Of a DNA stretch of 64,000 bases, positions 14,442-46,139 are shown one piece after another. The DNA comes from Vicinamibacterales bacterium (GTDB lineage Bacteria > Acidobacteriota > Vicinamibacteria > Vicinamibacterales > UBA2999). Both the position numbers and the translations under genes were made by a program. Positions within the stretch are counted from its first letter, which is position 1, and every line of letters begins with the position of its first letter. Where the stretch lies: the NCBI GenBank assembly GCA_050183355.1, contig JBFXBH010000002.1, positions 23,288 to 87,287 of the forward strand. Direction: 5' to 3'. The notes beneath the pieces were generated by a model, which saw only the letters and a program-made list of their open reading frames with translations, was not told the DNA's origin and made no database searches.

Positions 14442-15544
14442 CGCGCATCGTCGCCCAGTGGCGCAAGGAGGTCTCCCAGTTCTCCCGCGACCGGCTCGCG
14501 CTGGCGCTCGCGCTGCTGCTGCCGACGCTGCAGTTGCTGATGATGGGGCAGTCGCTCTCGTTCATCGTGCACGACATGCCGCTCGTCGTACAGGACCTGG
14601 ACGGTTCGCCGGCGTCGCGCGAGCTCATCGACGGCTTCCGCGGGTCGCTGACGTTCCGCATCGTCGAGTGGCCTCCGGATCGGCAGCCGGACGAGGCGTT
14701 GACGGCCAACCGGGCGCGCGGTGTGCTGATCATTCCGGCCGATTTCTCCCGGGATCTCGCGCGAGGCCTCACCGCGGACGTCCAGCTGATGGTCGACGGG
14801 TCGGACGGCAATACGGCGGGCCTGCTGGCCGGCCACGCCAGCGGCATCACGGCCGCGTTCAACGCGAAGCACGGCGGGCGCCGCGCCGGCGGGCAGGTGG
14901 CCGCGGCGGTCCGCTACTGGTACAACCCGGGCCGCGTCTCGAAGAAGTTCTACGGCCCCGGCATCTTCGTCATGGGGCTCTCGATGTTCCCGCCGCTGCT
15001 CGCCTCGATCGCGATGGCGCGCGAGGCGGAGCGGAAGACGATCCTGCAGGTCTACGTGTCGAACATCCCGGCGCGGGACTTCCTCGCCGGCAAGGTGCTC
15101 GCGTTCATGACGGTCGCGCTGGCCGAGGCGTTGCTGCTGTTTGCCATCCTGCGGCTCGTGTTCGGGCTGAGCTTCGTCGGCGACCCGACGCCGTTTCTGG
15201 TCGCGACGATCCTGTATGTGTTCACGGTCGCGGCCTTCGGCACGATGATCGGCGCCGTCGTGCCGAACCAGGTCGCGGCCATGCAGGCCGTGATGATGGG
15301 CGGCTTCCTGTTCACGTTCCTGCTGTCGGGCCTGCTGTTCCCGCTCTCGAACGTGCCCGGCGAACTGCGCTGGCTGTCGTACCTCGTCTGGGCGCGCTAC
15401 TACATCGAGATCGTGCGCGACGCGCTGCTGCAGGGTGGCGGCTGGCCGGCCGTGTGGTGGAAGGTGCTCGCGATCGGGGGCATCGGCGTCGTGTTCTTCG
15501 GCATCGCGTGGCGGCGCCTGCGGCCGATGAGGCTGGAGGTCTGA
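14438..15544 (+). CDS. ABC-2 type transporter permease (YbhS/YbhR-like)
   Basis: ATGA overlap with the ATPase gene. N-terminal TM helix, large periplasmic loop, then 5 C-terminal TM helices. Confidence 0.85.
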   Translation: MTRIVAQWRKEVSQFSRDRLALALALLLPTLQLLMMGQSLSFIVHDMPLVVQDLDGSPASRELIDGFRGSLTFRIVEWPPDRQPDEALTANRARGVLIIPADFSRDLARGLTADVQLMVDGSDGNTAGLLAGHASGITAAFNAKHGGRRAGGQVAAAVRYWYNPGRVSKKFYGPGIFVMGLSMFPPLLASIAMAREAERKTILQVYVSNIPARDFLAGKVLAFMTVALAEALLLFAILRLVFGLSFVGDPTPFLVATILYVFTVAAFGTMIGAVVPNQVAAMQAVMMGGFLFTFLLSGLLFPLSNVPGELRWLSYLVWARYYIEIVRDALLQGGGWPAVWWKVLAIGGIGVVFFGIAWRRLRPMRLEV

Positions 15545-16710
15545 TGGTTGCGCGGTTCAGGCGCTTCTGGAGCCCCGCGCTCCGGGCACTGGTGCTGAAG
15601 GAGCTGCACCAGGTGCGTCACGACAAGCGGATCCTGGTGGCGCTCGTGCTGCCGCCGCTCATGCAGCTCATGATCTTCGGCACGGTGATGAGCCCGAAGG
15701 TCACCGGTATCGAGTTGGGCGTGGTGGACGACAGCCGCACGCCTGCCAGCCGGAGTCTCGTCGCCGCGCTGAGCGAAAGCGGCAGCTTCAAGCTCGCCGC
15801 GTCCTTCGGCTCGGTGGAAGCGCTGAGCGAGGAGATCCGGCAGGGGACGGTCGATGCGGGCATCGTGATCCCGGCCGAGTTCGCGGGCGAGCTGGACCGG
15901 GGCCGGACGGCGCTGATTCAGGTGCTGCTCAATGCGATGAACGCAAATACGGCCGCCGTGAGCCAGGGCTACGTGCGCGGCGTACTGCAGAGCTTCAACC
16001 GGACGCTGACCGCCGGGGACGTCGGGCTCTCGCAGCGCAACGTCGACGGCGCGCCTCCGCGACGCGGCCTCGTGCAGCTCCGTCCGCTGTTCCTGTTCAA
16101 CCCGGGGCTCGTGTCGTCGTGGTTCCTGGTCACGGGGCTCATCGGCCAGCTCCTGCTGATGAACGGCATGATCACGGCCTCGGCCACGATGGTGAAGGAG
16201 CGGGAGGCCGGCACGCTCGAGCAACTGCTGATGACGCCGCTCCGCACCTCGGAGATCATCGTCGCGAAGATCCTGCCGCAGTTCGTGCTGCTGATGATCC
16301 CGGCGTCGATCGCGCTCGTCGTGATCCGCTTCTGGTTCGACGTGCCGTTCCGTGGCAGCGCCGCGCTCTTCGCGGTGGCGGTGGCGGCGTGCCTGATGTG
16401 CGGCATCGGCTTCGGCACCGTCGTGGCCACGCTCAGTAAATCCGCGCAGCAGGCACAGCTCGCGAGCTTCTTCATCATTCCGCCGATGATGTCGCTCTCC
16501 GGGACGATGACGCCGGCCGAAGCCATGCCGGCGTGGATGCAGCCGTGGACGGTCATCAACCCCATCTATCACTTCGGCTTCATCGCGCGCGGCACGCTCA
16601 TCCGCGGCAGCGAGCTGCCGGACGTGTGGACGCACCTGGTGGCGCTCGTGATCATCGCCAGCGTGGTGATGGGGATCAGTGTCTGGCGGTTCCGCCAGCA
16701 GTTGTCATGA
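15544..16710 (+). CDS. ABC-2 type transporter permease (YbhS/YbhR-like), second copy
   Basis: TGATG overlap with the previous permease. Same architecture. EREAGTLEQLLMTP motif typical of ABC-2 permeases. Confidence 0.85.
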   Translation: MVARFRRFWSPALRALVLKELHQVRHDKRILVALVLPPLMQLMIFGTVMSPKVTGIELGVVDDSRTPASRSLVAALSESGSFKLAASFGSVEALSEEIRQGTVDAGIVIPAEFAGELDRGRTALIQVLLNAMNANTAAVSQGYVRGVLQSFNRTLTAGDVGLSQRNVDGAPPRRGLVQLRPLFLFNPGLVSSWFLVTGLIGQLLLMNGMITASATMVKEREAGTLEQLLMTPLRTSEIIVAKILPQFVLLMIPASIALVVIRFWFDVPFRGSAALFAVAVAACLMCGIGFGTVVATLSKSAQQAQLASFFIIPPMMSLSGTMTPAEAMPAWMQPWTVINPIYHFGFIARGTLIRGSELPDVWTHLVALVIIASVVMGISVWRFRQQLS

Positions 16711-18296
16711 CGGCGGCCATGGCCGCCGGAGGATGCAGCGTCATGAATCGAGTGGTGATGGTGGCGATGACCGGCGCGTTCACGCTGGCCGTGGGCGGTG
16801 TGCCGCCGGTGTTCGCGCAGGGGAGTGCCGCGAGCGGTGGCGCCGGTGGCGCCGCGCAGGGCCTGACGCTGCCGCTGTCCGGCCGTCCCGGGCAGGCCGG
16901 TTCCGTCTCCGTGGTGCAGACGGCGCTGCCCGGGGCCTCGTCGAGCGTGAACACGGCGAGCCCGACGGTCCAGGCGCAGGGCGCGGCAACCGGCAGCCGG
17001 AACGGCGCGACGCCGTTGACCGGGCCGCTGGGATTCCGCGACGCGGTCGAGCGCGGCCTCGCCTGGAATCTCGGCACGGTGAGCGTGGCGCAGACCGTCC
17101 GGCAGGCCCGGAGCCAGCAGGTGCTGGCCCGGAGCGCCCTACTGCCGACGATTGGCGCAGACCTGGCGGCGACGCGGCAGCAGTTGAACCTCGCGGCGAG
17201 CGGGTTCGGCAGCATCGGCAGCCCGCTGCCCGGCTTCAACTTTCCGAGTGTGGTCGGCCCGTTTACCGTCGTGGACCTGCGTGCGCGGCTCTCGCAGTCT
17301 GTCGTGGACGTGACGAGCTGGAAGAACTTCAAGGCGGCCCGGGAGGGCGCGGCCGCCGCGCAGTGGACGAACGAGGACGCCCGCGACCTGGTCGTGCTCG
17401 CCGTGGGTGGCAGCTACCTGCAGGCGCTGGCGGCGCGCGCGCGTGTGGAGTCGGCTCGCGCCCAGGTCCAGACGGCGGAAGCGCTCTTCAGGCAGACGGC
17501 GGAGCGCAAGGCCGCGGGTGTGGCCGCGCAGGTGGACGTCGACCGGAGCGAGATCCAGGCGCTGACGCAGCGGCAGCGCCTGACGGCGCTCGTCAACGAC
17601 CTGGCCAAGCAGAAGATCGCGCTGGCGCGGATGGTGGGCCTGCCGCCGACCGACGCGTACGACCTGGCCGAGCCCGTTGCGTTCGCGCCGGCGCCGGCTA
17701 CGACGCCCGAGGCCGCCGTCACGCTGGCGCGCGAGCGCCGGGCCGATCTGAAGTCGGCCGCGGCGCAGGTCCGCGCGGCAGAGCTTGCACTTGCGGCGGC
17801 CCGCAGCGAACGGCTGCCGACGGTCTCCGTGAGCGGCGACTACGGCACGCTGGGCAGCTCGCTCGCGAACGGCCGCACCACGTTCAGCGTGGCCGGGCGC
17901 GTGCACGTGCCGGTCTTCGACGGCGGCCGCACCGGCGCCCACGTCCAGCAGGCAGAGGCCGTGGTGGCGCAGCGGCGGGCCGAGCTGGAGGACCTCGCCG
18001 GCCAGATCGAGGCCGACATCCGCCGCGCGCTGCTGGATCTCGGCGCGGCCACCAGCCAGGTCGAGCTGGCGCGGCGGAACGTGACCGTGACGAAGGAAGC
18101 GCTGGATCTGACGCGCCAGCGCTTCGAGGCCGGCGTGGCCGAGAGCCTCGAGGTCGTACAGGCTCAGGAAGCCGTGGCCACGGCCGAGCTGGACTACATC
18201 AACGGCGTCTTCGCGCACAACCTGTCGAAGCTGGCGCTCGCGCGGGCCACGGGCGAGGCGGACGAGCGGCTGGCGGACTACCTGAAGTTACCCTGA
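16707..18296 (+). CDS. TolC-family outer membrane efflux protein
   Basis: ATGA overlap with the permease. Signal peptide, then two tandem OEP-type helical repeats. A start at MNRV (about 16743) is also possible. Confidence 0.85.
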   Translation: MTAAMAAGGCSVMNRVVMVAMTGAFTLAVGGVPPVFAQGSAASGGAGGAAQGLTLPLSGRPGQAGSVSVVQTALPGASSSVNTASPTVQAQGAATGSRNGATPLTGPLGFRDAVERGLAWNLGTVSVAQTVRQARSQQVLARSALLPTIGADLAATRQQLNLAASGFGSIGSPLPGFNFPSVVGPFTVVDLRARLSQSVVDVTSWKNFKAAREGAAAAQWTNEDARDLVVLAVGGSYLQALAARARVESARAQVQTAEALFRQTAERKAAGVAAQVDVDRSEIQALTQRQRLTALVNDLAKQKIALARMVGLPPTDAYDLAEPVAFAPAPATTPEAAVTLARERRADLKSAAAQVRAAELALAAARSERLPTVSVSGDYGTLGSSLANGRTTFSVAGRVHVPVFDGGRTGAHVQQAEAVVAQRRAELEDLAGQIEADIRRALLDLGAATSQVELARRNVTVTKEALDLTRQRFEAGVAESLEVVQAQEAVATAELDYINGVFAHNLSKLALARATGEADERLADYLKLP

Positions 18297-25520: not shown

Positions 25521-25949
25521 TCAGGCCCTTGACCTGGCGGGGCTCTCACGAGCGTGCAGCGCGGAGATCAGCGGGCATGTGATGGAGCCCTGGCGCGAGC
25601 CGCAGTCCGCGACGAGCTTCTTGAGGACCGACTCGATACGTCGCAGGTCGCGGAGCTTTGACCGGACGTCGTCCAGTTTCTGTGCCGCCATGACCCGAGC
25701 CTCGCCGCAGTGTGCCCCGTCGTCCAGCCGGAGGAGCGCGGCGACTTCCTCCAGGCTGAACCCCAGGCGCTGGGCGGACTTCACGAACTTGACGCGCGCC
25801 ACATCCGACGCGCCGTATCGCCGAATCTGTCCATAAGCGCGCCTGGGCTCGGTGAGCAGGCCACGTCGTTGATAGAAGCGAATCGTTTCAACGCTGACGT
25901 TGGCCGCGGCGGCGATCTCGCCGATCGTCGAATCTCCAGGCTTGATCAT
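25521..25949 (-). CDS. merR: Hg(II)-responsive transcriptional regulator MerR
   Basis: 142 aa, collinear with Tn21/Tn501 MerR ([42 protein letters not shown]). The three Hg-ligand Cys are present (DGAHCGEA; [13 protein letters not shown]). Confidence 0.92.
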
Positions 25950-25954
25950 GAAGG

Positions 25955-25985
25955 TTGACTCCGTACCGAAGTACGGTCCTAACCT
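25955..25985 (+). promoter_or_regulatory. mer operator/promoter (MerR-type promoter with 19-bp spacer)
   Basis: TTGACT (25955-25960), a 19-nt spacer containing the dyad CCGTAC-N4-GTACGG (25961-25976), then TAACCT (25980-25985). This nearly matches the Tn21 merOP layout, between divergent merR and merT. Confidence 0.8.
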
Positions 25986-26021
25986 TAACCTGTCGAGAGG
26001 TCAACGAGAAGGAGGGTGGGG

Positions 26022-26372
26022 ATGTCCGAGCGCCCGAAGGGTCGTGGCGCGCTGCTGGTCGGGGGGCTTACGGCGATACTCGCGTCGACCTGCTGCCTCG
26101 GTCCGCTCATCCTGCTGATGCTCGGCATCAGCGGAGCGTGGATCGGCACCCTCACCGCGCTGGAGCCCTACCGGCCTGTCTTCATCGGCTCGGCGGTCGT
26201 CGCCCTGTTGTTGGCCTATCGACAGATCTTCCGTCCGGTTGCCGAGTGTCGTCCCGGCGAGGTCTGTGCCGTGCCCGAGGTCCGGACGACATACAAGGCC
26301 CTGTTCGGTCTGGTTGTCGTGCTGCTGGCGATCGCTCTCGGCTACCCGTTCGTTGCGCCCTGCTTCTATTGA
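26022..26372 (+). CDS. merT: mercuric ion transporter MerT
   Basis: AAGGAGGG RBS before ATG 26022. CC pair in TM1 (ASTCCLGPL) and a cytoplasmic Cys pair (CRPGEVC). About 116 aa with 3 TM helices. Confidence 0.9.
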   Translation: MSERPKGRGALLVGGLTAILASTCCLGPLILLMLGISGAWIGTLTALEPYRPVFIGSAVVALLLAYRQIFRPVAECRPGEVCAVPEVRTTYKALFGLVVVLLAIALGYPFVAPCFY

Positions 26373-26404
26373 ACAGGCTCACCTCATCCACAAAGGAGAA
26401 CCAC

Positions 26405-28097
<1,693 letters not shown>

Positions 28098-28153: not shown

Positions 28154-29107
28154 TCAGAAGAGCGCGGCGACAGCCTGGCGCAGTTCGGCTGCCGCCATCC
28201 CACCCGGTTGGTACCGTTGGACTCGACCCGCGCGATCGACCAGCACCAGCGTCGGCGTCGTGCTGACGCCGTAGGCCGCGAAGTTCTTCGCGCTGAGCGG
28301 GATCGGGATCCCGGTCAGCGTGGGGTAGAACTCGCGCTGGATCTGCCGGATATGCCGCGCTTCTTCCGTCGGCGGCACGTCGTCCCGTGAACCGATGTAG
28401 CCGTACCGCTGCGTCGGCGCCACCACGCGGAGTCCCCGGTTTCCGAACTCGCGCTGCACGGCGGTCAAGGTCTTCGCGAAGAGCTTGCAGTCCGCGCACC
28501 AGTGTGCCCAGAAGAAGAGTAGCGTCGGCTGGCCCTGTCCGGCTTTCATCCGGGCGTCGGTCAGGTATTCGTCAGTGGCGAGCGGAGGCATGGCCTGGCC
28601 CTTCAGGCCGATCAGGTGCACGTTCTTCTGGAGCCGGGCCTGGATCGACGTGTTGCCGAAGCGGTCGAGCGCCCGGTTCAGGAGCAGCAGCGCTTCGGAG
28701 CGGGCACCCTGCGCGGCGAGCGCCTGCGCCTGCACTTCGTAGGCGGCCCCGAGCGCGAGGGGGACGCTGGGCTCCTGATCCAGCGGCCGGTTCCGCAGCG
28801 CGGCCAGCACGCTCTTCTCGGTGTCGCCCGCCACGCGGAGGGCGAGATTGAACTGCCGGGCGGCCAGCGCCCCTCGACCGACCCACGAGAGGGCCAGCAG
28901 GGCTTCGGGATCGGCAGGCGCGCGCCCGACCGCGGCCGCGGCCAGCCGCTCCGCCCCCCTCAGGTCGCCAGCGGTGATCAGGGCACGGGTGTCTGCTACG
29001 AGATCGGCCGCGGCGACCCGGTGCGTGATGGCAAGAACTCCGGCGAGTGTCAACGTGGCGAGCAGGACCGAGAGGCCCGTCGCGCGTGGGGTGCGGAGGT
29101 CGGACAT
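28154..29107 (-). CDS. TlpA-family thiol:disulfide oxidoreductase with N-terminal helical (TPR-like) domain
   Basis: Internal Met (MSDLRTP) gives a signal anchor, an Ala/Leu-rich repeat region and a C-terminal thioredoxin fold with WCADC. The 850-aa track ORF is an upstream artefact. Confidence 0.8.
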   Translation of the reverse strand: MSDLRTPRATGLSVLLATLTLAGVLAITHRVAAADLVADTRALITAGDLRGAERLAAAAVGRAPADPEALLALSWVGRGALAARQFNLALRVAGDTEKSVLAALRNRPLDQEPSVPLALGAAYEVQAQALAAQGARSEALLLLNRALDRFGNTSIQARLQKNVHLIGLKGQAMPPLATDEYLTDARMKAGQGQPTLLFFWAHWCADCKLFAKTLTAVQREFGNRGLRVVAPTQRYGYIGSRDDVPPTEEARHIRQIQREFYPTLTGIPIPLSAKNFAAYGVSTTPTLVLVDRAGRVQRYQPGGMAAAELRQAVAALF

Positions 29108-29163: not shown

Positions 29164-29179
29164 TGTGAGGTTGCTCACA
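29164..29179. promoter_or_regulatory. perfect CRP-type palindrome TGTGA-N6-TCACA (site 1)
   Basis: TGTGAggttgcTCACA. It lies between the divergent tlpA-like start (29107) and the thioredoxin-like/crp operon start (29213). Confidence 0.6.
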
Positions 29180-29212
29180 GCGGTCGGGCGCGATGCCGCG
29201 TATCTTCGATCG

Positions 29213-29476
29213 GTGAGCGGGACAGTCGAACTGTTCGTGAGTGACCATTGTCCGGCGTGCCCGGAGGCGCGCATACGGCTCCGCCGGCTCGCGCGAGGCC
29301 GCCCTGGTCTGCGCGTCGTCGAGCACGACGTGGACCTGCCGGAGGGGCGGGAACATGCCGAAGCGTACGGCCTCATCGCCGTTCCCGCGTTCGTGGTCGA
29401 CGGCGCGTCCATCAGCTATGGCATCCCGACGGACGCCTGGATCCTCGGCCAGTTCCTGCGCCGGCACGTCCGCTGA
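29213..29476 (+). CDS. small thioredoxin/glutaredoxin-fold protein (Thioredoxin_3-like)
   Basis: 87 aa from GTG 29213. VELFVSDHCPACPEA...YGLIAVPAFVVDG pattern. An alternative GTG at 29165 would overlap the palindrome. Confidence 0.6.
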   Translation: MSGTVELFVSDHCPACPEARIRLRRLARGRPGLRVVEHDVDLPEGREHAEAYGLIAVPAFVVDGASISYGIPTDAWILGQFLRRHVR

Positions 29477-29500: not shown

Positions 29501-30187
29501 ATGGCAGCCCACACCAAGCTCTGGTACCTTGAGCGGTTCCGCATGCTCGATGTCGTGCCGGCTCATCAGCGGCAGGTCGTCGAGAAGATGACGCGGATGC
29601 TCGAGGTCAAGCGTGGCCAGCGGATCTATATCCACGGCGACCCCAGTGACCAGGTATTCCTCCTGAAGGCCGGTGTCGTGAAGATCGCCCGGCTGGGTCC
29701 GCGGCAGCAGGAAACGATTCTGGCGTTTCTCTATCCCGGGGATGTCTTCGGCGAGCTTGCGATCGTGGATCAGAGCCCGCGCGATCACGTGGCCGAGGCG
29801 CACGAGGACACCGTGCTCTGCGCGCTCAGCCGCGATCTGGTGATCCGCATTGCGCAGGAGGCGCCGGCGCTCGGCTATCACATCACCAAGGTCATGGGTC
29901 AGCGGGTGAAGCGGCTCGAGACTCGCTTGAGTGAGCTGCTCGGCAAGGGTGCCGCCGCTCGGGTGGCCCACACGCTCGTCGAGTTGGCGGAGGCCTACGG
30001 CGTACCGGACGCCGCCGGCGTGCTGGTCCCGCTTCGGCTGAGTCAGTCGGATATCGGGAATCTGGTGGGGCTGACACGCGAGACAGTGAACATCGTGCTG
30101 CAGGACTTCCGTCAGCGCGGTCTCGTGCTCGCCGAGCGGCGGGCCATCAGGATTGCCGACATGGCAGGTCTCCGCGCGGTCTCGTAG
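29501..30187 (+). CDS. Crp/Fnr-family transcriptional regulator
   Basis: 228 aa. cNMP-binding-like beta-roll (VFLLKAGVVKI...GDVFGELA) and a C-terminal HTH with LTRETVNIVL (RETV as in E. coli CRP recognition helix). Confidence 0.9.
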   Translation: MAAHTKLWYLERFRMLDVVPAHQRQVVEKMTRMLEVKRGQRIYIHGDPSDQVFLLKAGVVKIARLGPRQQETILAFLYPGDVFGELAIVDQSPRDHVAEAHEDTVLCALSRDLVIRIAQEAPALGYHITKVMGQRVKRLETRLSELLGKGAAARVAHTLVELAEAYGVPDAAGVLVPLRLSQSDIGNLVGLTRETVNIVLQDFRQRGLVLAERRAIRIADMAGLRAVS

Positions 30188-30777: not shown

Positions 30778-31917
30778 TTATCGGCCGGCTCGCTGCGGGC
30801 CAGCCGTCCTGCGCATGAAGCGTCGATCGAGATGGTCCTTCCAGCGGCGGACCCAGCGTCCCTCCGCCGACCAGGGTCCCCATTCGGCAAGGCTCCGGCC
30901 GTTTCCGAGATTCAGGATCCGGAGCATCCGACGGGGCTGGTGGAACAGGACCAGGGGCTCATCGGCCAGCACCCTCCTGATGTTCGCATCGAGGACAGGC
31001 CCCTGGCGCACGGCGACCACGCCAGACTTCCGCGCCCGTCGGCCGCGGAACGTGCCGGCGTCGCCGGCCACGAAGACGCGCGCGTCGCCGACGACCCGCA
31101 ACGTGTGCTCCGTGACCGGGAAGCCGTCTGCGCCGGTGGGCAGGTCTGTCGCGTTGATCACCGGTGCGGGCGCGGACGTCGTGGCCCAGAGAATCGCCTC
31201 GCCCACGAGCGAACTGCCTCCGGCGGCGGTCACGGTGCCGCCGTTGATGCCGGTGACGCGGAGGCCGCTGAACACCTCAACGCCTGCGGCGGTCAGCGCC
31301 CTGAGTGCCCGGACCGACGCAGCCGGCGACTCGTCGCCGAGCACTCCGCGCTCACCGGCCAGCAGCGTGACCTGAAGGTCTGGCGAGATGCGGCGCAGGT
31401 AGATCGGCGCGCAGAGCGCCAGCTCGACACCCGAGGCGCCTCCGCCGACCACGATGAGGCGCGGCGCGCGTCCGTGGAGGCCAGCCTGCGCCTCCGTCCA
31501 GGTCCTTTCCAGCCGGTCGAGGAGCGAGGCGAGTGGCTTGTGCGGGACGAGGCGTGACGCGTCGACGATAGTGACTCCCTCGAACGACGGCTGCGATCCG
31601 ACGGCGATGGAGAGGACGTCAAAGGGTACGGGTTGACCCCGGTCCAGTGTGACCGTCCGGGTGGCCCGGTCGATCCCGGTCATCGACGCGACGTGGAGCT
31701 CAGCCGACGCCGCGTTGGTGAGGGCTCCGATGTCGATCAGCGCCTCCGACGGGGCGTACTCACCTGCCAGGAGCCCCGGCACCATGCCCGAGTAGATGAC
31801 GGCCGGCGTGTCGGTGACGCAGACCAGGCGGGCGTCGGGCGGTGGATGGCTGGCCCAGCGCCGCAGCACGTGCAGGTGGGCGTAGCCCATCCCGACGAGG
31901 ACAACCTGTCGGACCAT
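30778..31917 (-). CDS. FAD-dependent pyridine nucleotide-disulfide oxidoreductase (TIGR03169 'N-terminal-to-SelD'-like)
   Basis: 379 aa. VVLVGMGYAHLHVLRRW...IYSGMVPGLLAGEY and a second dinucleotide fold LIVVGGGASGVELA. The start overlaps the stop of the upstream glycosyltransferase gene (TGATG). Confidence 0.75.
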   Translation of the reverse strand: MVRQVVLVGMGYAHLHVLRRWASHPPPDARLVCVTDTPAVIYSGMVPGLLAGEYAPSEALIDIGALTNAASAELHVASMTGIDRATRTVTLDRGQPVPFDVLSIAVGSQPSFEGVTIVDASRLVPHKPLASLLDRLERTWTEAQAGLHGRAPRLIVVGGGASGVELALCAPIYLRRISPDLQVTLLAGERGVLGDESPAASVRALRALTAAGVEVFSGLRVTGINGGTVTAAGGSSLVGEAILWATTSAPAPVINATDLPTGADGFPVTEHTLRVVGDARVFVAGDAGTFRGRRARKSGVVAVRQGPVLDANIRRVLADEPLVLFHQPRRMLRILNLGNGRSLAEWGPWSAEGRWVRRWKDHLDRRFMRRTAGPQRAGR

Positions 31918-32606
31918 CAGCGAACGTGTCCGTACGCGCGCGCGAGGACGGCAGGATCGACGCCGGACCGATAGAGGATCGGCAGCACGTTCATCGCGAG
32001 CGCGAAGTAGATCGGCCGGGTCGCAAATCGACGACCCGACACGATGACATCCCGGCGCAGCGTGCGCACCAGGCCCGCGCGGCGCAAGCGCCGGCTGAAC
32101 TCGAGATCTTCGAACAGCGGCTGGTCCGGAAATCCTCCCACGGCGTCGAATACACTCCGACGCGCGAAGATCGCCTGGTCGCCGTAGGGAAGCCTGGTGT
32201 ACCGGGAGCGAAGATCAGCCAGCCGCACGAGCGTCGACAGAACCGGAGTTGGCGTGTCCAGCACGGTGCGGGTCGTGAAGGCGCCGCCGACCGTATCAGG
32301 GTCTTCCAGCGCGCCGGCGATGCGCGCGGTGACGTCGGCAGGCAGGCGGACGTCGGCGTGGAGGAAGAGCAGCACATCGCCGCGGGCAGCCTTGGCGCCC
32401 GCGTTCAATTGTGGGCCTCGTCCGCGCGGCGCGCTGAGAAATCTGGCTCGCGTGGCCCGCACGCACGCCTCGGTCTCGTCCTCGCTGCCGCCGTCGGCGA
32501 CGACTACTTCGAAGACACCCGCGAGACGCTCCAGCGCAGCCAACTGCCCGGGGATGGCGCGCGCCTCGTTCAATGTCGGGATGACGATCGAAACGGACAG
32601 GCTCAC
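31917..32606 (-). CDS. family-2 glycosyltransferase, TIGR04283-like (rSAM/selenodomain-associated; 'arsenosugar biosynthesis glycosyltransferase')
   Basis: 229 aa. VSIVIPTLNEA...VVVADGGSEDET...LLFLHADVRLP...YGDQAIFARRSVF, typical of this family. Co-located with arsS, arsM and a DUF2064 gene. Confidence 0.8.
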   Translation of the reverse strand: MSLSVSIVIPTLNEARAIPGQLAALERLAGVFEVVVADGGSEDETEACVRATRARFLSAPRGRGPQLNAGAKAARGDVLLFLHADVRLPADVTARIAGALEDPDTVGGAFTTRTVLDTPTPVLSTLVRLADLRSRYTRLPYGDQAIFARRSVFDAVGGFPDQPLFEDLEFSRRLRRAGLVRTLRRDVIVSGRRFATRPIYFALAMNVLPILYRSGVDPAVLARAYGHVR

Positions 32607-33289
32607 GCCTGGTCTCCGGTCCGTCGGGATGTCACGTCGAGCTGGGCGATGGCCGCGGCGGTCGCCGGGGCCCGCCGCGCCAGGGTGGCCGGCCGCTGGC
32701 GGAGGCAGCGCAGGCCGGCTTCATCGTCGACGTCGTGCCAGGAGGCTATCGTGGCAACATCCAGCCCGAGGCCCTGCAGACGCGCGAGTGTGTCGCGGCC
32801 GGTCCGAGGCTGACTCCAGGCGAGGCCCGCGAGCAGCTGTGGCGGGCAGCGCGTGAGGCCCAGCAGGTAGAAGCCGCCGTCGTCGGCGGGGCCGAGCACC
32901 GCCTCGTGCGTGCGGAGCAACCGTCTGGTGGACGCCAGCCGGTTAGCGGGGAGGTCCGGGACATCCGTGCCGATCACGATGGCCGCTTCGTGCGAGCGCA
33001 GAGCCCGCCGCAGCACGCGGGTCATCCGGTCGCCGAGGTCGCCTGTGCCCTGCGGCCAGATCTCGGAGCCGCCCGGCGCGGCTGCCGCCATGGCGCGCAC
33101 ATCCGTCGTCGCGATGACACAGTCGGCCCAGTCGAGCGCGCGAACGGTCGACCAGGTGTCGCGCAGAAACGCCAGCGCGAGATCCGCCGCCGGTCCCGAT
33201 CCGACCGTGCGCGCCAGGCGTGTCTTCACACGTCCAGGAAGAGGCGGTTTGGCAAAGACGCAGATGCGGATGCGGCCGCCCGGCGTCAT
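32603..33289 (-). CDS. DUF2064 / TIGR04282-like glycosyltransferase (rSAM/selenodomain-associated)
   Basis: Start at the internal Met (ATGA overlap with the upstream gene). ICVFAKPPLPGRVKTRL...IGTDVPDL...GPADDGGFYLLGL motifs of DUF2064. Confidence 0.8.
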   Translation of the reverse strand: MTPGGRIRICVFAKPPLPGRVKTRLARTVGSGPAADLALAFLRDTWSTVRALDWADCVIATTDVRAMAAAAPGGSEIWPQGTGDLGDRMTRVLRRALRSHEAAIVIGTDVPDLPANRLASTRRLLRTHEAVLGPADDGGFYLLGLTRCPPQLLAGLAWSQPRTGRDTLARLQGLGLDVATIASWHDVDDEAGLRCLRQRPATLARRAPATAAAIAQLDVTSRRTGDQA

Positions 33290-34791
33290 CGGCGCCACGC
33301 GAGCAACCCCGTCAGTACGCGCCGGACGCGGGGTGTCAGGCGCGTTCGATTCCACTCGTCCCCCAGCCGCTTCCATGCCTCGGCCACGGTCGGGTAGGGA
33401 TGCACCGTGGAGGCAAGGGTGCCCAGCCGGATGCCGGCTGCCATCATCAACGCCATCTCTCCGATCGCCTCACCGGCGTGGGGCGCGACCATGGTGGCGC
33501 CGAGGACCCGCCCGGCACGATCCGTCCGGACCCGGGCGAAGCCGTCGGTGGCGCCGTCGAGCACGGCACGATCGACATTCGTCATCGGCACGGTGAAGGT
33601 CGAGATATCAGCGCGATCGGCGGCCTCGGACTCCGGCAGCCCCACGCTCGCGACTTCCGGATCGGTGTACGTACAGGAGGGAATGACGAGCGCGCTGGCG
33701 CGCTCGCGACCGAAGAAGAGCGCGTTCTGGACGGCGATGCGGGCCATGGCGTCGGCCGCGTGCGTGAAGGCCGGCAGGCCTGTGATGTCGCCCGCGGCGT
33801 AGACCGCGCGATTGGTCGTACGCAGGAAGTCGTCGACGATCACGCCACGCGGTCCGGCGGTGATGCCGGCGGCGCCGAGGTTGAGTCCGTCGACGTTCGG
33901 CCGCCGGCCGGCCGCCACGAGCAGCGCATCGCCATGCACGGTACGTTCGCGCCCCTCGTGGTCGGCGACGAGGAACAGCCCCTGGGCGTCACGACCAGCC
34001 AGGCGGATGGCAGCTCCGAGGATCAGACGCACGCCATCAGACTCGAGCGCGCGGGCCACGATGGCACCTGCGTCCGCATCGTCTCTGGGGAGCACGCGAG
34101 CACTGTCGCTCACGACCGTCACCTCCGACCCCAGGCGCGCGAAGACCTGCGCCAGTTCGCAGCCAATCGGCCCGGCACCGATGACGGTAAGCCGCGGAGG
34201 ACAGGTCTCCAGCGAGAAGACGGTCTCGTTGGTCAGCACGGGCACCCCCTCGAGGCCCGGGATCGGCGGCACCGCCGCTCGCGCACCCGTCGCGATGATT
34301 GCCCTCGTGAAGCGGAGCCGCGCGCCGGCCGCGTCAAGGACGCGGGGTTCGGCGAACCGGGCCCCGCCCAGAAAGACGTCGATGCCGAGACCGGCCAAGC
34401 GTGCCACGGAATCGTGTGGCGCGAGTGACAACCGCAGCGCGCGCATCCGGTGCATCACGGCGTCGAAGTCGATCGCTGGAGCGCCCGGCACCTGGACGCC
34501 ATAGGCCGCGGCGCCCCTCACGCCGGCCGCGGCCCGGCCCGATCGAATGAGCGCCTTCGACGGCACGCACCCATAGTTCAGGCAATCCCCGCCCAGGCGG
34601 TGTCGTTCGACGATGGCCACGCGCGCACCGAGCGAAGCGGCCCCGACGGCACTGACCAGTCCCGCGGTGCCGCCGCCGACGACGACCAGGTTGTAGCGCG
34701 GCGCGGGCTCGGGATTGCGCCAGTCGGCCGGCCGTACGTGATGCAGAAGGGCCTGGTCCGTTTCGGCCCCCGGGCCTGTGTGGAGGGTCAT
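33286..34791 (-). CDS. MerA-like pyridine nucleotide-disulfide oxidoreductase (no C-terminal Cys pair)
   Basis: Start at the internal Met MTLHTG (ATGA overlap with the upstream gene). VVVGGGTAGL, redox-active GGDCLNYGCVPSK and HPYPT(VAEA) dimerisation motif. It lacks the MerA CC tail. Confidence 0.85.
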   Translation of the reverse strand: MTLHTGPGAETDQALLHHVRPADWRNPEPAPRYNLVVVGGGTAGLVSAVGAASLGARVAIVERHRLGGDCLNYGCVPSKALIRSGRAAAGVRGAAAYGVQVPGAPAIDFDAVMHRMRALRLSLAPHDSVARLAGLGIDVFLGGARFAEPRVLDAAGARLRFTRAIIATGARAAVPPIPGLEGVPVLTNETVFSLETCPPRLTVIGAGPIGCELAQVFARLGSEVTVVSDSARVLPRDDADAGAIVARALESDGVRLILGAAIRLAGRDAQGLFLVADHEGRERTVHGDALLVAAGRRPNVDGLNLGAAGITAGPRGVIVDDFLRTTNRAVYAAGDITGLPAFTHAADAMARIAVQNALFFGRERASALVIPSCTYTDPEVASVGLPESEAADRADISTFTVPMTNVDRAVLDGATDGFARVRTDRAGRVLGATMVAPHAGEAIGEMALMMAAGIRLGTLASTVHPYPTVAEAWKRLGDEWNRTRLTPRVRRVLTGLLAWRR

Positions 34792-35495
34792 ACGTGCGCC
34801 GTCCGCGCAGGGGGATCGGGTTGGTGCAGTTCGCGCGTCAGCGCACGACGCGCTACCCGCGTCAGCGCGACGACGACGGCCACCGTTGCGGCCAGGCCGA
34901 CGCCGGCCGAGATCTGCCGCAGCGTGCCGCCCGCGAGGTCGCCGCGCGCGAGCGTGGCCACGTCGCGGACCAGCGATCCGAGGTAGACGAACAGGAATGT
35001 CGCGGGCAGCATGCCGACAAACGACGCGGCGACATAGTCGCGGAGCCGCACCGCCGTCAGGCCGAGCGCGTAGTTCAGCATGCCAAACGGCACGAGGGGA
35101 GACAGCCGGAGGAGGACGACGATCCTGAAACCATGGGCGCCGATGGCGGCATCGATCGCGTGAAAGCGCGGATCGGCCGCGGCCCGGTTCGCCACCGCGT
35201 CCCGCAGGACCGTCCTGCCGAGCAGGAACGCGACGGTAGCGGCCGCGACGCTGACTGGCGAGACGAGCAGCGTCCCGAGCAGAGGTCCGTAGGCGAAGCC
35301 CGCTCCGACCGTCAGCACCGAGCCCGGCAACAGCAGGATCGTGACGGCGACGTAGACACCCGCATAGACGAGTGCGCCCATCGGACCGGCGTCGCGCACC
35401 CACTCCGCGAGGCCGGCCAGCCACTCGCGCGCGGGCAGGACGAGCGCGGCCTCCGCGACCAGCGACAACGCTGCCAGCACGCCGAGCGCAGGCAT
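34788..35495 (-). CDS. TVP38/TMEM64 (DedA/SNARE-associated) family membrane protein
   Basis: Polytopic membrane protein with LLPGSVLTVGAGFAYG and RLSPLVPFGMLNYALGLT motifs. Start set at Met 35495; the longer 35603 start would overlap arsS by 62 nt. Confidence 0.75.
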   Translation of the reverse strand: MPALGVLAALSLVAEAALVLPAREWLAGLAEWVRDAGPMGALVYAGVYVAVTILLLPGSVLTVGAGFAYGPLLGTLLVSPVSVAAATVAFLLGRTVLRDAVANRAAADPRFHAIDAAIGAHGFRIVVLLRLSPLVPFGMLNYALGLTAVRLRDYVAASFVGMLPATFLFVYLGSLVRDVATLARGDLAGGTLRQISAGVGLAATVAVVVALTRVARRALTRELHQPDPPARTAHV

Positions 35496-35541
35496 CCACA
35501 GCCGGGAGCGTCCGGTTACCGAATCCGGTCCGGTCGGCACG

Positions 35542-36543
35542 TCAGACCACGGCTCCGGAGCAGCCCGACCCGGCGCCCGCCGTGCATCCGAAGCAGTGTC
35601 CACCGGTGGCGACCCGCGCGCCTCTCAGGCCTCCCAGGTCCGAGACGTCCCAGATCGTCGGGCGTCCCTGTGGCGTCGCCGCCATGGGCAGGTCCAGCAT
35701 CTGGTTGAAGTCGCAGTCGTAGAGTCCGCCATCCCAGCTGACACTCACCAGCGACCGGCACATCAGACCGGCGACCGTGGCGGGATTGAAGTGCTGGACG
35801 AGCAGACTCATGTACGCGTCCATCCGGCCCTCGCGTTCGAGCATTCCCGCGAACCGGCGAATCGGCATGTTGGTGATCGTCAGGAGGTGGTGAAAGACGA
35901 TGCCGAAGCGGTCGCCGAGCGCATCGCGATACTGGGCTTCCAACTCGGCCTGCGCGGGCGGCAGTGATGCGCCGAGCGGATTGAAGACCAGATCGAGCCT
36001 GAGCGGAGACTCGGGCTGGCCGTACCCGAGCGCGTTCAACTGCCGCAGGGCCTCGATGCTGGCGTCGAACACGCCGAGGCCACGCTGGCGGTCCACGTTG
36101 TCCAGGGTGTAGCAGGGCAGACTCGCGACGATGTCTACACCCTGCGCTGCCAGGAAGCCGGCGAGGTCCTCCTGGCCCGGCTCACGCAGGATCGTCAGAT
36201 TGCAGCGATCGATGACGCGCAGGCCGCGGGCTCTTGCCGCCAGGACGAGCGGGCGGAAGTGCGCATTCAGTTCGGGCGCGCCACCGGTCAGGTCGACGGT
36301 CCGCAGCCCCGGGTTGGCGTCCAGCAGCTCGATCAGGCGATCGGCCACCTCCGCGCCCAGGGCTTCGGTCCGCTTCGGTCCGGCTTCGACGTGGCAGTGG
36401 TGACACGCTTGATTGCATACGCGTCCCACGTTGATCTGCAGGGTGTCCACGACGCCTCGCGCCAGCGTGGGGACACCGGCCGACTGGAGGGCCGACTCGA
36501 ACGACGGCGCGGTATCGAGGAGGGCCGGTACCATCAGCAGCAC
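35542..36543 (-). CDS. arsS: arsenosugar-biosynthesis-type radical SAM protein ArsS (TIGR04167 radical SAM/Cys-rich family)
   Basis: CNQACHHC (CX3CX2C) and the family-typical C-terminal GGHCFGCTAGAGSGCSG Cys-rich tail. An ATG at 36534 (TGATG overlap with arsM) is an alternative to GTG 36543. Confidence 0.85.
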   Translation of the reverse strand: MLLMVPALLDTAPSFESALQSAGVPTLARGVVDTLQINVGRVCNQACHHCHVEAGPKRTEALGAEVADRLIELLDANPGLRTVDLTGGAPELNAHFRPLVLAARARGLRVIDRCNLTILREPGQEDLAGFLAAQGVDIVASLPCYTLDNVDRQRGLGVFDASIEALRQLNALGYGQPESPLRLDLVFNPLGASLPPAQAELEAQYRDALGDRFGIVFHHLLTITNMPIRRFAGMLEREGRMDAYMSLLVQHFNPATVAGLMCRSLVSVSWDGGLYDCDFNQMLDLPMAATPQGRPTIWDVSDLGGLRGARVATGGHCFGCTAGAGSGCSGAVV

Positions 36544-37709
36544 CCGTCCTCACCGGAGCAGAGCGCGGCGGCGTCTGTCGTGAGGTTGTAGTCCTCGCCC
36601 TTTGTTTCGCGCGGATCGCGCACCAGCGTGCCGCCCGTGCACGGGAACGGCCTGGCGTCGCCCTCCGCGACCGGTACGACCGGGTCGATCAATTCCACGT
36701 GCTCCCGGTACGGCGCCTGGGAGAAGACGTTGAATGTCTTGCGGCACACGGCAGTCCGCACGCCGCGCCGCAGCCGGTGCCCGTCGTCGTCGAGCACTTC
36801 CCGGAACGGGCCCTTGTACACGACCGCGTCCTTGTGGTCGAGACAGGGGCCGTCGCTGTGCTTCCACGCCACGATTGTCATGCTGCGGAACTCGATGCCC
36901 TCCACGGTACGCCATGCGTCGACCGCGCGCGACGCGATTGTCAGGGCGCGAAACCCCGCGCGCTCGAACGCCAGAAGGAACTCATCCTCGCGCAGGGCAC
37001 CGGAGACGCAGCCGGTCCAGAGCTCGGGATCCTGCCGCAGATGGTCGGGCACCGCTTCGTCCGCGACGATGTCCGAGATCACCACCCGCCCGCCGACGCG
37101 CACCACCCGGAACAACTCGTCGAACATGCGCGCCTTCTGGGACGCCTCGACCAGATTGAGCACGCAGTTGGAGATGACCACATCCACGGAGCCGTCGGCG
37201 ATGAGGGGCGTCTGGCGGCGCAGGCGCTCGGCTTCCGCCTCTGCCCGGGAGAAGGCTCCGACGGAGTCCGCCGGGGACGATGCGAGGTAGCGGTCGAAGG
37301 CATCGAGGTCGAGCGCCAGATCCTGGATCCGGGCCCTGGCGAACCGGACGTTCGAGAAGCCGACTGCCGCGGCGACGGTCGGTGCACTCCGGCGGGCGAG
37401 GGCAAGCATTTCCTCGTTCATGTCGACGCCGATGACCGCGCCCTCAGGTCCGACGACCTGACTGGCGATGAAACAGACCTTGCCTCCGCCTGAACCCAGA
37501 TCCAGGACCCTCTCGCCCGGCTGGAGATACCGGCTGGGGTCGCCGCAGCCGTAGTCCCGTTCCAGGACCTCCTCCGGAATCGCCCTCAGGAGGGCCGGAT
37601 CGTAGGACACGGGGCAGCACAGCGCGGCCTCCCTCGCCTGGGCGGCAGCGCCGTATCGTTCGCTCACCGCGTGTTCAACGCTCAAGTTGCTGAGGGCGCG
37701 CACTGACAT
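36534..37709 (-). CDS. arsM: arsenite S-adenosylmethionine methyltransferase ArsM-like
   Basis: Start at the internal Met MSVRAL. CCPVSYD...YGCGDP, SAM motif VLDLGSGGGK, TGCVSGAL, plus a Cys-rich C-terminal domain ending in GCC. Confidence 0.85.
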   Translation of the reverse strand: MSVRALSNLSVEHAVSERYGAAAQAREAALCCPVSYDPALLRAIPEEVLERDYGCGDPSRYLQPGERVLDLGSGGGKVCFIASQVVGPEGAVIGVDMNEEMLALARRSAPTVAAAVGFSNVRFARARIQDLALDLDAFDRYLASSPADSVGAFSRAEAEAERLRRQTPLIADGSVDVVISNCVLNLVEASQKARMFDELFRVVRVGGRVVISDIVADEAVPDHLRQDPELWTGCVSGALREDEFLLAFERAGFRALTIASRAVDAWRTVEGIEFRSMTIVAWKHSDGPCLDHKDAVVYKGPFREVLDDDGHRLRRGVRTAVCRKTFNVFSQAPYREHVELIDPVVPVAEGDARPFPCTGGTLVRDPRETKGEDYNLTTDAAALCSGEDGCC

Positions 37710-37854
37710 CCGTGTGACTCCTGGGTTGGGCCGGTAATGACCCAAGGGCGGCGGGCAGCCGGGATACCGCCACCTACCGGGTATGGGTGTGCTGGCAGCG
37801 CCGGACATTACAGACTCGCGTTCAGGACACGCCGGCGGGGCTTCTTCGCGAAGC

Positions 37855-37870
37855 TGTGAGGTCGGTCACA
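37855..37870. promoter_or_regulatory. perfect CRP-type palindrome TGTGA-N6-TCACA (site 2)
   Basis: cTGTGAggtcggTCACAg, in the 243-bp divergent region between arsM (start 37709) and the CMD-family gene (start 37953). Confidence 0.6.
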
Positions 37871-37952
37871 GCATTGCGCCGCGCATCCACGAACAATGGA
37901 GTGGACGACGTAACAACACGACTGACGCACATCATCCAAGGAGAACGACGCC

Positions 37953-38501
37953 ATGAACTACACCGTGCATTCCATCGAGTCCGCTCCGGCGGCTTCCAAA
38001 GATACATTGGCTGCCGTCGCAAGGGCCTACGGGTTTCTGCCGAATCTGATGGGCGTGATGGCCGAGGCGCCTGCCGCGCTCAAGGCCTACCCGACGCTGA
38101 TCGGGCTGTTCGACCAGACGTCGTTCACGCCGACGGAGCGGCAGGTCGTACTCCTGGCTACCAGCGTCGAGAACGGGTGCGACTACTGCGTGGCCGCGCA
38201 TACGGTGATCGCGGGCATGCAGGGCGTGGCCGGCGAGGTCGTGCAGGCGATTCGCGCGGGTCAGCCCCTTGCCGATACGAGGCTCGAGGCCCTGCGCCGC
38301 TTCACGATCGCGGTGGTCGGTTCACGGGGACGCGTCTCCGACGCGGACACCACGAGCTTCCTCGGCGCTGGATACACACTGGGGCAGGTGCTGGAGGTCG
38401 TGCTGGGCGTCGCCATCAAGACGCTGTCGAACTACGTGAACCACATTGCCGAGACGCCCATCGATGGCGCGTTTGCAGCGGCGGCGTCGCCGGCCGCGTA
38501 G
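37953..38501 (+). CDS. carboxymuconolactone decarboxylase (AhpD-like) family protein
   Basis: AAGGAGAA RBS. 182 aa with a CxxC in the AhpD-like context (ENGCDYCVAAH). Confidence 0.85.
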   Translation: MNYTVHSIESAPAASKDTLAAVARAYGFLPNLMGVMAEAPAALKAYPTLIGLFDQTSFTPTERQVVLLATSVENGCDYCVAAHTVIAGMQGVAGEVVQAIRAGQPLADTRLEALRRFTIAVVGSRGRVSDADTTSFLGAGYTLGQVLEVVLGVAIKTLSNYVNHIAETPIDGAFAAAASPAA

Positions 38502-42681: not shown

Positions 42682-43074
42682 TCAGGCCGAGAGTGCGGCG
42701 TCCGCCGCCTCGACATGCGCCGCGACTGCCCGCCGCGCGGCTTCGCCGGTGATCCGGAAGTGCGAGGCCGTCCAGCGGGCTCGGCCGTCGCCGACGAGCA
42801 GCAACTGCGGCGACTCGTGCCGGACACCCAGCCGTTCCGCGACGGCACTCGATGCTGCACGGCCTGTCTGAACGCTGATGACGTAGAGCGGGACGGGGAG
42901 GCTGCCGCGAGCCTCGGACAACTCGTCCCAGGCCTGCGCGCTGATCCCGCACGTCTCGCTGTGCTTGAACAGCAGGATGGGCCCGGTCCGTGACGCAGCC
43001 AGGGCGGCGTCGACGTCTTCCGGCGTCGTCAGTTCAGGGGCGTGGCGCATGGGGTCGGTCTGGTGTACGGGCAT
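42682..43074 (-). CDS. ytxJ: YtxJ-like monothiol thioredoxin-fold protein (DUF2847, bacillithiol-system type)
   Basis: GGAG RBS before the internal Met 43074. ILLFKHSETCGIS (TCxxS monothiol motif) and ESPQLLLV as in YtxJ. The track start 43128 adds 18 aa. Confidence 0.7.
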   Translation of the reverse strand: MPVHQTDPMRHAPELTTPEDVDAALAASRTGPILLFKHSETCGISAQAWDELSEARGSLPVPLYVISVQTGRAASSAVAERLGVRHESPQLLLVGDGRARWTASHFRITGEAARRAVAAHVEAADAALSA

Positions 43075-43162
43075 GGGTGCTCCAGAGGGATCGCTGCCAG
43101 GTGATCGTGTCAACCGATCGTGACGCATCCGCGCCGGGCACGGCGGCGCGAAGCGCGGGAAC

Positions 43163-43178
43163 TGTGAGATGCGTCACA
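43163..43178. promoter_or_regulatory. perfect CRP-type palindrome TGTGA-N6-TCACA (site 3)
   Basis: cTGTGAgatgcgTCACAa, between divergent ytxJ (start 43074) and the second CMD-family gene (start 43287 or 43251). Confidence 0.6.
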
Positions 43179-43286
43179 ACAATCATTGGCGCCCCGCGGC
43201 GATGATGCCGTCCGGATCGCGTCGGTCATGGGCAGTGACGCACTGCCGGGGTGACCGTGAACAGGAACCAGAACCGAGGGAATGAC

Positions 43287-43856
43287 ATGGCCGAAGCCGA
43301 ATTCACGATGTCCCTGCCTGCCCGAACCGAGAATGATGCCGACCCGGCCGTTGCGGACGTGCTGCGTGCCGCGAGGGCGGCCATGGGCATGATTCCGAAC
43401 ATGTACGCGAACATGGCGAATGTGCCCGGTCTGCTGCAGACCTACCGGACGGGCTACGACGCCTTCCGCTCGGATTCCGACCTGACGCCGGTCGAGCAGG
43501 AAGTCGTCTTTCTGACGATCAGCCGGCTGAACGGCTGTCGGTACTGTGTGGCGGCGCACAGCGCCGTGGCCGACATGTCCCAGGTACCAGAGGCGGTGAC
43601 CGCCGATCTTCGAGCCGGTACGCCCCTGGCCGATGCGAAGCTCCAGGCTCTGACGAGGTTCACGACAACGATGGTGGAGAGCCGTGGGCTGCCGACAAGG
43701 GCTGATGCGACCGCGTTTATCGATGCGGGCTATACCGAGCGCCACATGCTGCATGTGCTCCTCGCCATTGCTGTCAAGACCATCTCGAACTACAGCAATC
43801 ATCTCTTTCACACCCCACTGGACGCGGTGTTCGCGCACCGCGTCTGGGAGGACTAG
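43287..43856 (+). CDS. carboxymuconolactone decarboxylase (AhpD-like) family protein, paralog 2
   Basis: GAGGGA RBS before ATG 43287 (GTG 43251 is also possible). NGCRYCVAAH CxxC motif. Collinear with the 37953 paralog (…IKTLSNYVNH / …VKTISNYSNH). Confidence 0.8.
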   Translation: MAEAEFTMSLPARTENDADPAVADVLRAARAAMGMIPNMYANMANVPGLLQTYRTGYDAFRSDSDLTPVEQEVVFLTISRLNGCRYCVAAHSAVADMSQVPEAVTADLRAGTPLADAKLQALTRFTTTMVESRGLPTRADATAFIDAGYTERHMLHVLLAIAVKTISNYSNHLFHTPLDAVFAHRVWED

Positions 43857-46131: not shown

Positions 46132-46139
46132 CGGCGTTC

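Follow-up and report, generated by a model that had tools for sequence, protein, structure and literature searches.

The Crp protein of M. tuberculosis (Mtb Crp, Rv3676) and GlxR of C. glutamicum bind cAMP via RS/TS-type residues, and both are global regulators. Class II activation by CRP/FNR proteins is defined by a box at -41.5 that replaces the -35 element. The FNR-type oxygen sensors of the same family have an N-terminal Cys cluster for [4Fe-4S], an E--SR helix and a TTGAT-N4-ATCAA box. In CRP, R180 and E181 read TGTGA, and the cAMP signatures are the RS phosphate-binding pair (R82-S83) with E72 and the TS of the C-helix (T127-S128), which contacts adenine (PMC10187061). Mtb CRP is among the TGTGA-recognising CRPs (PMC11253593). 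The cAMP-independent proteins SdrP (TTHA1359) from T. thermophilus and DdrI from D. radiodurans bind TGTGA/TGTRA-N6-TCACA/TYACA boxes and are described as stress-related, and in DdrI the final two residues of the RETV helix are not conserved (PMC11253593; PMC8465061), so that a CRP box can still be bound by an RETV helix whose end is not conserved.

We analysed a stretch of 64,000 nucleotides of a Vicinamibacterales (Acidobacteriota) genome with a G+C content of 69.8% (the window), which contains a Crp/Fnr-family regulator gene. Its product has the same domain order as Mtb Crp and GlxR, the same start of the recognition helix (RETVN) and the same type of box (TGTGA-N6-TCACA); these two proteins were also its closest solved structures (E=2e-31), and the aligned Mtb Crp fragment was 30% identical to it (alignment A1). 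Unlike them, the regulator here has RD for RS and LE for the TS/TN of the C-helix, the residue after RETVN, Lys in those two, is Ile or variable, and its regulon appears small and linked to thiol redox and arsenic genes, whereas Mtb Crp and GlxR act globally. SdrP and DdrI are not close to it in sequence; SdrP (2ZCW) was absent from its best 60 PDB matches. They belong to another phylum and, unlike the regulator here, are described without a co-transcribed thioredoxin or an ArsS/ArsM cluster. Judging from sequence comparisons, we put the probability at about 0.7 that the CRP boxes of this locus are operators of the adjacent regulator, and that it serves as a class II activator in a regulon of thiol-redox and arsenic genes. 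The following features of the window, with genes assigned by Pfam and NCBIfam profiles, bear on this reading.

29164 to 29179, no strand assigned: CRP-box 1, TGTGAGGTTGCTCACA, a perfect match; predicted autoregulatory operator of the small-thioredoxin/crp operon, with a counterpart in 13 of 14 related promoters.
37855 to 37870, no strand assigned: CRP-box 2, TGTGAGGTCGGTCACA, a perfect match, intergenic.
43163 to 43178, no strand assigned: CRP-box 3, TGTGAGATGCGTCACA, a perfect match, intergenic.
28154 to 29107, minus strand: TlpA/ResA-like membrane-anchored thioredoxin-fold protein with WCADC (WCxxC motif); Pfam Thioredoxin_2, Thioredoxin_8 and AhpC-TSA.
29213 to 29476, plus strand: small thioredoxin-fold protein (CPAC, MJ0307-like), first gene of the operon; Pfam Thioredoxin_3 and DUF1223, NCBIfam TIGR00411-like.
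29501 to 30187, plus strand: Crp/Fnr-family regulator of 228 aa; PF00027, PF13545 and PF00325.
30778 to 37709, minus strand: arsenosugar-type operon, with the ArsM-like gene first and then ArsS; NCBIfam.
37953 to 38501, plus strand: AhpD/CMD-like peroxidase-related gene 1; PF02627, TIGR01926-like.
42682 to 43128, minus strand: BrxC/YtxJ-like monothiol protein (TCGIS); PF11009 and translation.
43287 to 43856, plus strand: AhpD/CMD-like gene 2 (CRYC motif); PF02627, with its ATG at 43287 after GAGGGA.

Box 1 lies between the minus-strand TlpA/ResA-like gene and the small thioredoxin and crp genes, which are followed by a DUF6789 gene. Box 2 separates the minus-strand ArsM-like methyltransferase operon from AhpD/CMD-like gene 1, downstream of which come DUF1348 and then a histidine kinase. 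Box 3 stands between the BrxC/YtxJ-like gene, which lies on the minus strand, as does a DUF3179 gene, and whose true start is probably downstream of 43128, and AhpD/CMD-like gene 2. The arsenosugar-type operon encodes the ArsM-like methyltransferase, the ArsS radical SAM protein, a VTT/DedA-like protein, an FAD disulfide oxidoreductase, TIGR04282, TIGR04283 and a TIGR03169-like oxidoreductase. Two other gene groups were observed in the window: a mercury-resistance module immediately upstream of the regulon block (25521-28097), which has no CRP box, and a bufferin-like RiPP cluster on the minus strand (44029-46436).

25521 to 26000, minus strand: MerR (Pfam/NCBIfam).
25989 to 26372: MerT (Pfam/NCBIfam).
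26700 to 28097: MerA-like pyridine nucleotide-disulfide oxidoreductase (Pfam/NCBIfam).
46140 to 46436, minus strand: DUF2282 precursor-like gene of the bufferin-like cluster.
45259 to 46440 as called, minus strand: ORF of the MbnB/TglH/ChrH-family (DUF692) enzyme of this cluster.
44496 to 45272, minus strand: DUF2063 gene of this cluster.
44029 to 44499, minus strand: DoxX gene of this cluster.

An exact scan of the window found three perfect TGTGA-N6-TCACA boxes with first letters at 29164, 37855 and 43163, the same three that the sequence-only reading had listed. All three are intergenic with thiol-redox or arsenic genes on their flanks, which bears out its statement that the boxes occupy divergent promoter regions and that none lies inside a gene. 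To set the chance level, we made 100 dinucleotide-preserving shuffles of the window, which contained 0.02 perfect boxes on average, at most 1 and never 3; the earlier estimate of about 0.01 sites per 64 kb was of the right order of magnitude. When all 5-Nx-5 palindromes with gaps of 2-10 were enumerated (about 4600 tests), TGTGA-N6-TCACA ranked first in the window (three against 0.011 expected, Poisson p about 2e-7), and after correction for the number of tests the p value was still about 1e-3. A mismatch scan of the window gave zero boxes with one mismatch, and boxes with up to two mismatches were not enriched (13 vs 14.7 expected), indicating that the window holds three sharp sites and not a diffuse family. 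The two-mismatch matches were rejected as sites, having neither an in-phase -10-like hexamer nor a convincing intergenic position. Apart from the core and one or two neighbouring bases, the three boxes have nothing in common (alignment A2), and they are therefore not repeat copies; a larger repeat or mobile element around them was discarded as well, as the sequence likeness ends at the core. An Rfam search of the whole window gave zero matches. We also observed GGTGA-N6-TCACC palindromes at 19084, 19399 and 50985 (three vs 0.06 expected), an enrichment that fails multiple-testing correction; none of them has an in-phase -10-like hexamer.

The regulator is composed of an N-terminal cNMP-binding-type beta-roll and a C-terminal Crp-type HTH, with matches to PF00027 (E=9e-19), PF13545 (5e-18) and PF00325 (8e-10) that all exceed their cut-offs; it stays under every cut-off of the NCBIfam Crp/Fnr equivalog models (PRK11753, 72.6 bits vs 266). 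Its recognition helix reads TRETVNIVL. The RETV noted earlier as shared with E. coli CRP is thus present, and R193-E194-T195-V196, equivalent to R180-V183 of CRP, is invariant across the regulator subfamily, though the equivalent of R185, the third residue with which E. coli CRP touches the bases of its box, is Ile in the window regulator and I, T, M, V or G in the subfamily (alignment A1), which counts against the assignment of the boxes to this regulator. In the same alignment, the RS position is RD, inside a PRDHxAxAHED motif (PRDHVAEAHED in the window regulator) in which the Ser position is Asp in nearly all subfamily members, E85 and R94 are conserved, and the TS position is Leu-Glu. Since both the RS and the TS signatures are missing, the regulator is probably not an E. 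coli-type cAMP receptor, and cAMP sensing is probably absent. We also rejected an FNR-type oxygen sensor, because the regulator has no FNR-type N-terminal Cys cluster, the helix is RETV and the box is TGTGA-N6-TCACA. Its sole Cys, C107, is conserved in the alignment. Two further features of the subfamily were observed: the N-terminal segment MAAHSKLWYLQRFRLLD is strongly conserved, and the PRDHxAxAHED..LC motif sits where the cAMP phosphate-binding cassette would be.

Related loci were collected from a scan of a genome collection and from seven contigs with the regulator protein as the only query, so that the choice of loci was blind to the motif. After removal of duplicates, the set comprised 19 loci (numbered with the prefix L; 272.7 kb), and the best-named regulator homologues came from Vicinamibacterales MAGs of the Acidobacteriota. 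These loci contained 28 perfect boxes, compared to 0.08 expected; together with the window, this makes 31 perfect boxes in 336.7 kb, where 0.09 are expected. TGTGA-N6-TCACA was also the most over-represented 5-Nx-5 palindrome of the related loci (-log10P = 60), and the runners-up CTGTG-N8-CACAG and GTGAG-N4-CTCAC were shifted versions of it, which gives the extended consensus cTGTGAg...cTCACAg. In the loci with gene tables, 17 of the 18 perfect boxes were intergenic. The small thioredoxin gene lies upstream of crp in most relatives. Of 14 orthologous small-thioredoxin/crp promoters, 9 have a perfect box and 4 a box with one mismatch (13 in total); the one without a box is that of L001. Between lineages, the flanks and the 21-nt spacers of these promoters are unrelated while the box is kept, so the box stands out as a phylogenetic footprint. 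In L024 and L025, crp is present but both the thioredoxin gene and an autoregulatory box are missing. An autoregulated and possibly local Crp-family regulon for thiol/metalloid stress, as proposed from the sequence alone, is the best reading of this conservation at the regulator's own promoter, and its thiol/metalloid theme returns in the related genomes, where boxes recur before thiol-redox genes and the ArsS/ArsM cluster.

We then compared the spacing between the boxes and candidate -10 elements. The hexamers predicted in the window are as follows.

29201 to 29206, plus strand: predicted -10 TATCTT, 21 nt after box 1 and 6 nt before the GTG at 29213.
37892 to 37897, plus strand: predicted -10-like AACAAT, 21 nt after box 2.
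43201 to 43206, plus strand: predicted -10-like GATGAT, 22 nt after box 3.

In the orthologous small-thioredoxin/crp promoters, the order is box, 21-22 nt (22 in two lineages), TAnnnT, 6-7 nt and GTG/ATG, with TAnnnT at the conserved spacing in all 14. The thioredoxin N-terminus M-x-H-L-V-E-L-F-Y-S..C-x-x-C is conserved from this GTG/ATG onward, and there is too little space for a Shine-Dalgarno sequence before the start codon. A hexamer at -12 to -7 implies that the transcript would begin at the start codon, leaderless, with the box centred at -41.5; for box 1 the centre is 29171.5 and the predicted transcription start site (TSS) 29213. For box 2, the predicted TSS is at about 37904, followed by a 5'UTR with AAGGAG before the ATG at 37953, and for box 3 it is at about 43213 with the box centre at -42.5; AACAAT and GATGAT are weak -10 hexamers. 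A spacing histogram was built from all 31 perfect boxes in both orientations (62), with nAnnnT counted as -10-like. The hexamer followed the box at 21 nt in 17 of 62 orientations and at 22 nt in 7, compared to about 2 at other spacings, with a weak bump at 39-40 (6 vs about 2). The 21-22 nt phasing occurs in at least 8 promoter classes, including small-thioredoxin/crp, the FAD oxidoreductase to ArsS-ArsM operon (L017, L019, L021, L023 and L026), the ECF sigma genes of L004 and L005, both AhpD-like genes of the window, and others in L006, L013 and L017. Perfect boxes with no 21-22-nt hexamer in either orientation are those at L004 1210 and L005 6789 and most of those in L025. A sigma-70 promoter and terminator scan detected no -35/-10 pairs and no terminators in the three intergenic regions of the window, a null result that was counted only as support for the missing -35.

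This arrangement resembles the class II promoters of E. coli CRP/FNR, in which the palindrome takes the place of the -35 at -41.5 and is followed by the -10. Here, the operator near -41.5 in place of the -35 and the in-phase -10 were found relative to predicted -10 elements; unlike in E. coli, the regulator is probably no cAMP receptor, a leaderless autoregulated transcript is predicted, and the geometry comes from sequence. The class II geometry, on which the sequence-only reading had made no statement, suggests that the regulator activates its own operon and the two AhpD-like genes: the small-thioredoxin/crp operon is most likely switched on by its own product, and AhpD/CMD-like genes 1 and 2 are likely class II targets of box 2 and box 3, respectively. 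On the opposite faces of the boxes, -10-like hexamers occur at 40-42 nt, which tentatively suggests that arsM, the tlpA-like gene and the brxC-like gene are controlled from there. A class I reading for these divergent genes was not relied on, as the signal in the pooled histogram was weak.

The same promoters could in principle be read with the adjacent regulator as a repressor that occludes the -35 region, represses its own operon and is released by an effector as in ArsR-type logic. A box that spans -49 to -34 is indeed where a bound protein could block RNA polymerase, and stress and detoxification operons are frequently controlled by de-repression; several boxes also do not have class II spacing. 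However, we found no recognisable -35 or extended -10 that would allow activator-independent initiation, and the strict 21-22 nt phasing to the -10 is a hallmark of class II activation that a repressor does not require, so we regard repression as unlikely and class II activation as the better account.

That the boxes are bound by the adjacent regulator is suggested by its matching RETV helix and by their distribution. Box density is highest at the regulator's own promoter: it reaches 4.0 per 10 kb at distances of up to 1 kb from crp, ranges from 0.2 to 1.0 farther out and falls to zero past 20 kb, a range covered by the window alone. The linkage of box and regulator is kept across lineages even though the regulators of Vicinamibacterales orthologues are only 51-72% identical, and in the window we found no second Crp-family gene and no perfect boxes in the approximately 50 kb outside the 29-43 kb block. 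All of this argues against another Crp-family protein, for example a global cAMP-CRP, as the one that binds the boxes, with the adjacent regulator merely one of its targets. Such a binder would be compatible with TGTGA-N6-TCACA being a generic CRP box common to many family members, with the several Crp/Fnr paralogs per acidobacterial genome (two of the regulator's subfamily in L025), and with boxes up to 10 kb from crp, where the densities of 0.6-1 box per 10 kb out to 7.5 kb are also compatible with a broader regulon; on balance, we find it quite improbable. The second paralog of L025 (4088-4678, minus strand; PRDHVAKAHED, RETVNLVL) has its own perfect box upstream at 4832 and an N-terminus that is seemingly frameshifted; with a second subfamily paralog in some genomes, the assignment of boxes to one protein is not unique there. 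Chance palindromes, or repeat or mobile-element copies with no regulatory role, are hardly credible even with only three boxes in the window, given the 0.02 expected in shuffles, the 28 additional perfect boxes in related loci that are nearly all intergenic, the core-only likeness with no Rfam match and the conserved positions of orthologous boxes, and the comparative data refute them.

For the arsenic genes, we evaluated cluster membership and the position of box 2. ArsS matched TIGR04167 with 427 bits (cut-off 300), and TIGR04282 and TIGR04283 scored 162.5 (cut-off 134) and 213.8 (cut-off 182) bits; together with the ArsM-like methyltransferase, these assign the operon to the arsenosugar-type (ArsS) system, the ArsM-like protein being under every ArsM cut-off (335.7 vs 500; 193.3 vs 263). 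The ATG at 37709, preceded by GGAG, is a more likely arsM start than 37808, and the ArsM profile match starts about 36 residues into the longer ORF. With the start at 37709, box 2 is located about 150 nt upstream of arsM, and a candidate -10 for the operon (TGTAAT, 37807-37812) would place the box 2 centre at about -62.5. From this position, the arsenosugar-type operon is a possible class I-like target of box 2. L009 shares the arsM-first order and showed no box ahead of arsM, so direct control of arsM in the window stays tentative. In other relatives, a box at class II spacing precedes the FAD oxidoreductase to ArsS-ArsM operon, and boxes also recur before the divergent VKOR/fatty-acid-hydroxylase genes. 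As in ArsR/SmtB-controlled systems, As(III) SAM-methyltransferase-like and ArsS radical SAM genes are in the neighbourhood, but the regulator family, the operator and the presumed logic (activation) are all different here, and the window has no ArsR-type gene beside the arsenosugar-type cluster. As an observation on the cluster itself, ArsS-like radical SAM and ArsM-like methyltransferase are fused into proteins of about 830-860 aa in L017 (212-2794), L019 (1323-3806) and L021 (1-1362); in the window they are separate adjacent genes, and the gene order of the cluster differs from that of the fused relatives.

DUF3179, VTT/DedA-like, BrxC-like, AhpD-like, ECF sigma and AhpC-TSA/DsbD_N peroxiredoxin-like genes are recurrent box targets in the relatives. 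The TlpA/ResA-like gene may be a second target of box 1; in L025, a one-mismatch box stands 78 nt ahead of the orthologous gene. The BrxC/YtxJ-like gene is likewise a possible target of box 3, and the brxC-like ortholog of L004 also diverges from a perfect box. The overall gene content is consistent with a regulon theme of thiol/disulfide redox and arsenic, and possibly selenium.

Several side observations were made on these gene families. The ECF sigma gene of the window (46584-47174) is apparently leaderless, with TAGAAT at 46584-46589, 6 nt and a GTG at 46596, and it has no CRP box. Its homologues carry boxes at class II spacing at L004 3256 and at L005 15183 and 18932 (minus strand), which shows that regulon membership varies between genomes. 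The AhpC-TSA/DsbD_N peroxiredoxin-like genes of L024 (11842-12984) and L025 (7399-8550) are orthologs of window 47394-48476 and lie directly downstream of perfect CRP boxes. In both, a TGA codon in frame occupies the position of the active-site Cys (SADW*P[FY]C; the window protein reads SADWCPYC), and they are probably selenocysteine variants. The regulator of L024 adjoins selA, selB and selD (13252-17750).

Class II activation by the adjacent regulator can be put together as follows. The regulator subfamily, found here in Vicinamibacterales, keeps RETV for reading TGTGA and has lost the cAMP-contacting residues. The dimer would bind with its centre at -41.5 or -42.5 in promoters that have a -10 and no -35, and recruit RNA polymerase as a class II activator. 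Box 1 would drive the leaderless small-thioredoxin/crp transcript, giving positive autoregulation, while boxes 2 and 3 would each drive one AhpD-like gene. With their other faces, at about -60 to -62, the boxes may also act on the divergent tlpA-like gene, arsM/arsS operon and brxC-like gene. The whole gene set would make up a compact regulon that serves thiol/disulfide redox and arsenic (possibly selenium) chemistry. The sequences show the boxes, how enriched and conserved they are, and how constant their distance to -10-like hexamers and start codons is; we infer the binding protein, activation versus repression, the TSSs and the effector. For the latter, a thiol, redox or metalloid signal is a speculation prompted by the conserved His/Asp/Glu/Cys region and by the CxxC thioredoxin of the same transcript, and our guess is that it acts via the PRDH..AHED..C region and this thioredoxin. 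A bolder proposal, which we consider doubtful, is that the regulator represents a new Crp-family sensory class that senses a thiol-reactive metalloid or disulfide stress. The remodelled cNMP-type pocket (PRDHxAxAHED) and the single Cys would then work with the co-transcribed CxxC thioredoxin; arsenite, methylarsenite, a selenium compound or disulfide stress would be candidate signals; and in soil Acidobacteria the regulator would be dedicated to activating arsenosugar/arsenolipid-type biosynthesis and the (seleno)thiol peroxidases associated with it.

Literature searches gave nothing relevant on a Crp-type regulator of ArsS/ArsM clusters or on an acidobacterial CRP regulon; the regulon is previously undescribed, while the regulator type and the operator are well known. 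The ArsS/TIGR04282/TIGR04283 cluster is widespread and its physiological trigger, possibly arsenic and/or selenium, is poorly understood, and Vicinamibacteria are abundant in soil and rarely cultured. The regulon is conceptually unsurprising and does not overturn current understanding. It adds a clear case of a Crp-family protein with a canonical CRP box and no cAMP signatures, and gives evidence, at the level of sequence, that Acidobacteriota have leaderless class II promoters. A sharp operator with a dedicated regulator offers an experimental handle: the regulator and its 16-bp box could be used in effector screens, and the box could help predict which genes of metagenome-assembled genomes are co-regulated. 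The locus may thus open a way to study how ArsS-type clusters and redox defence are regulated in uncultured soil Acidobacteria.
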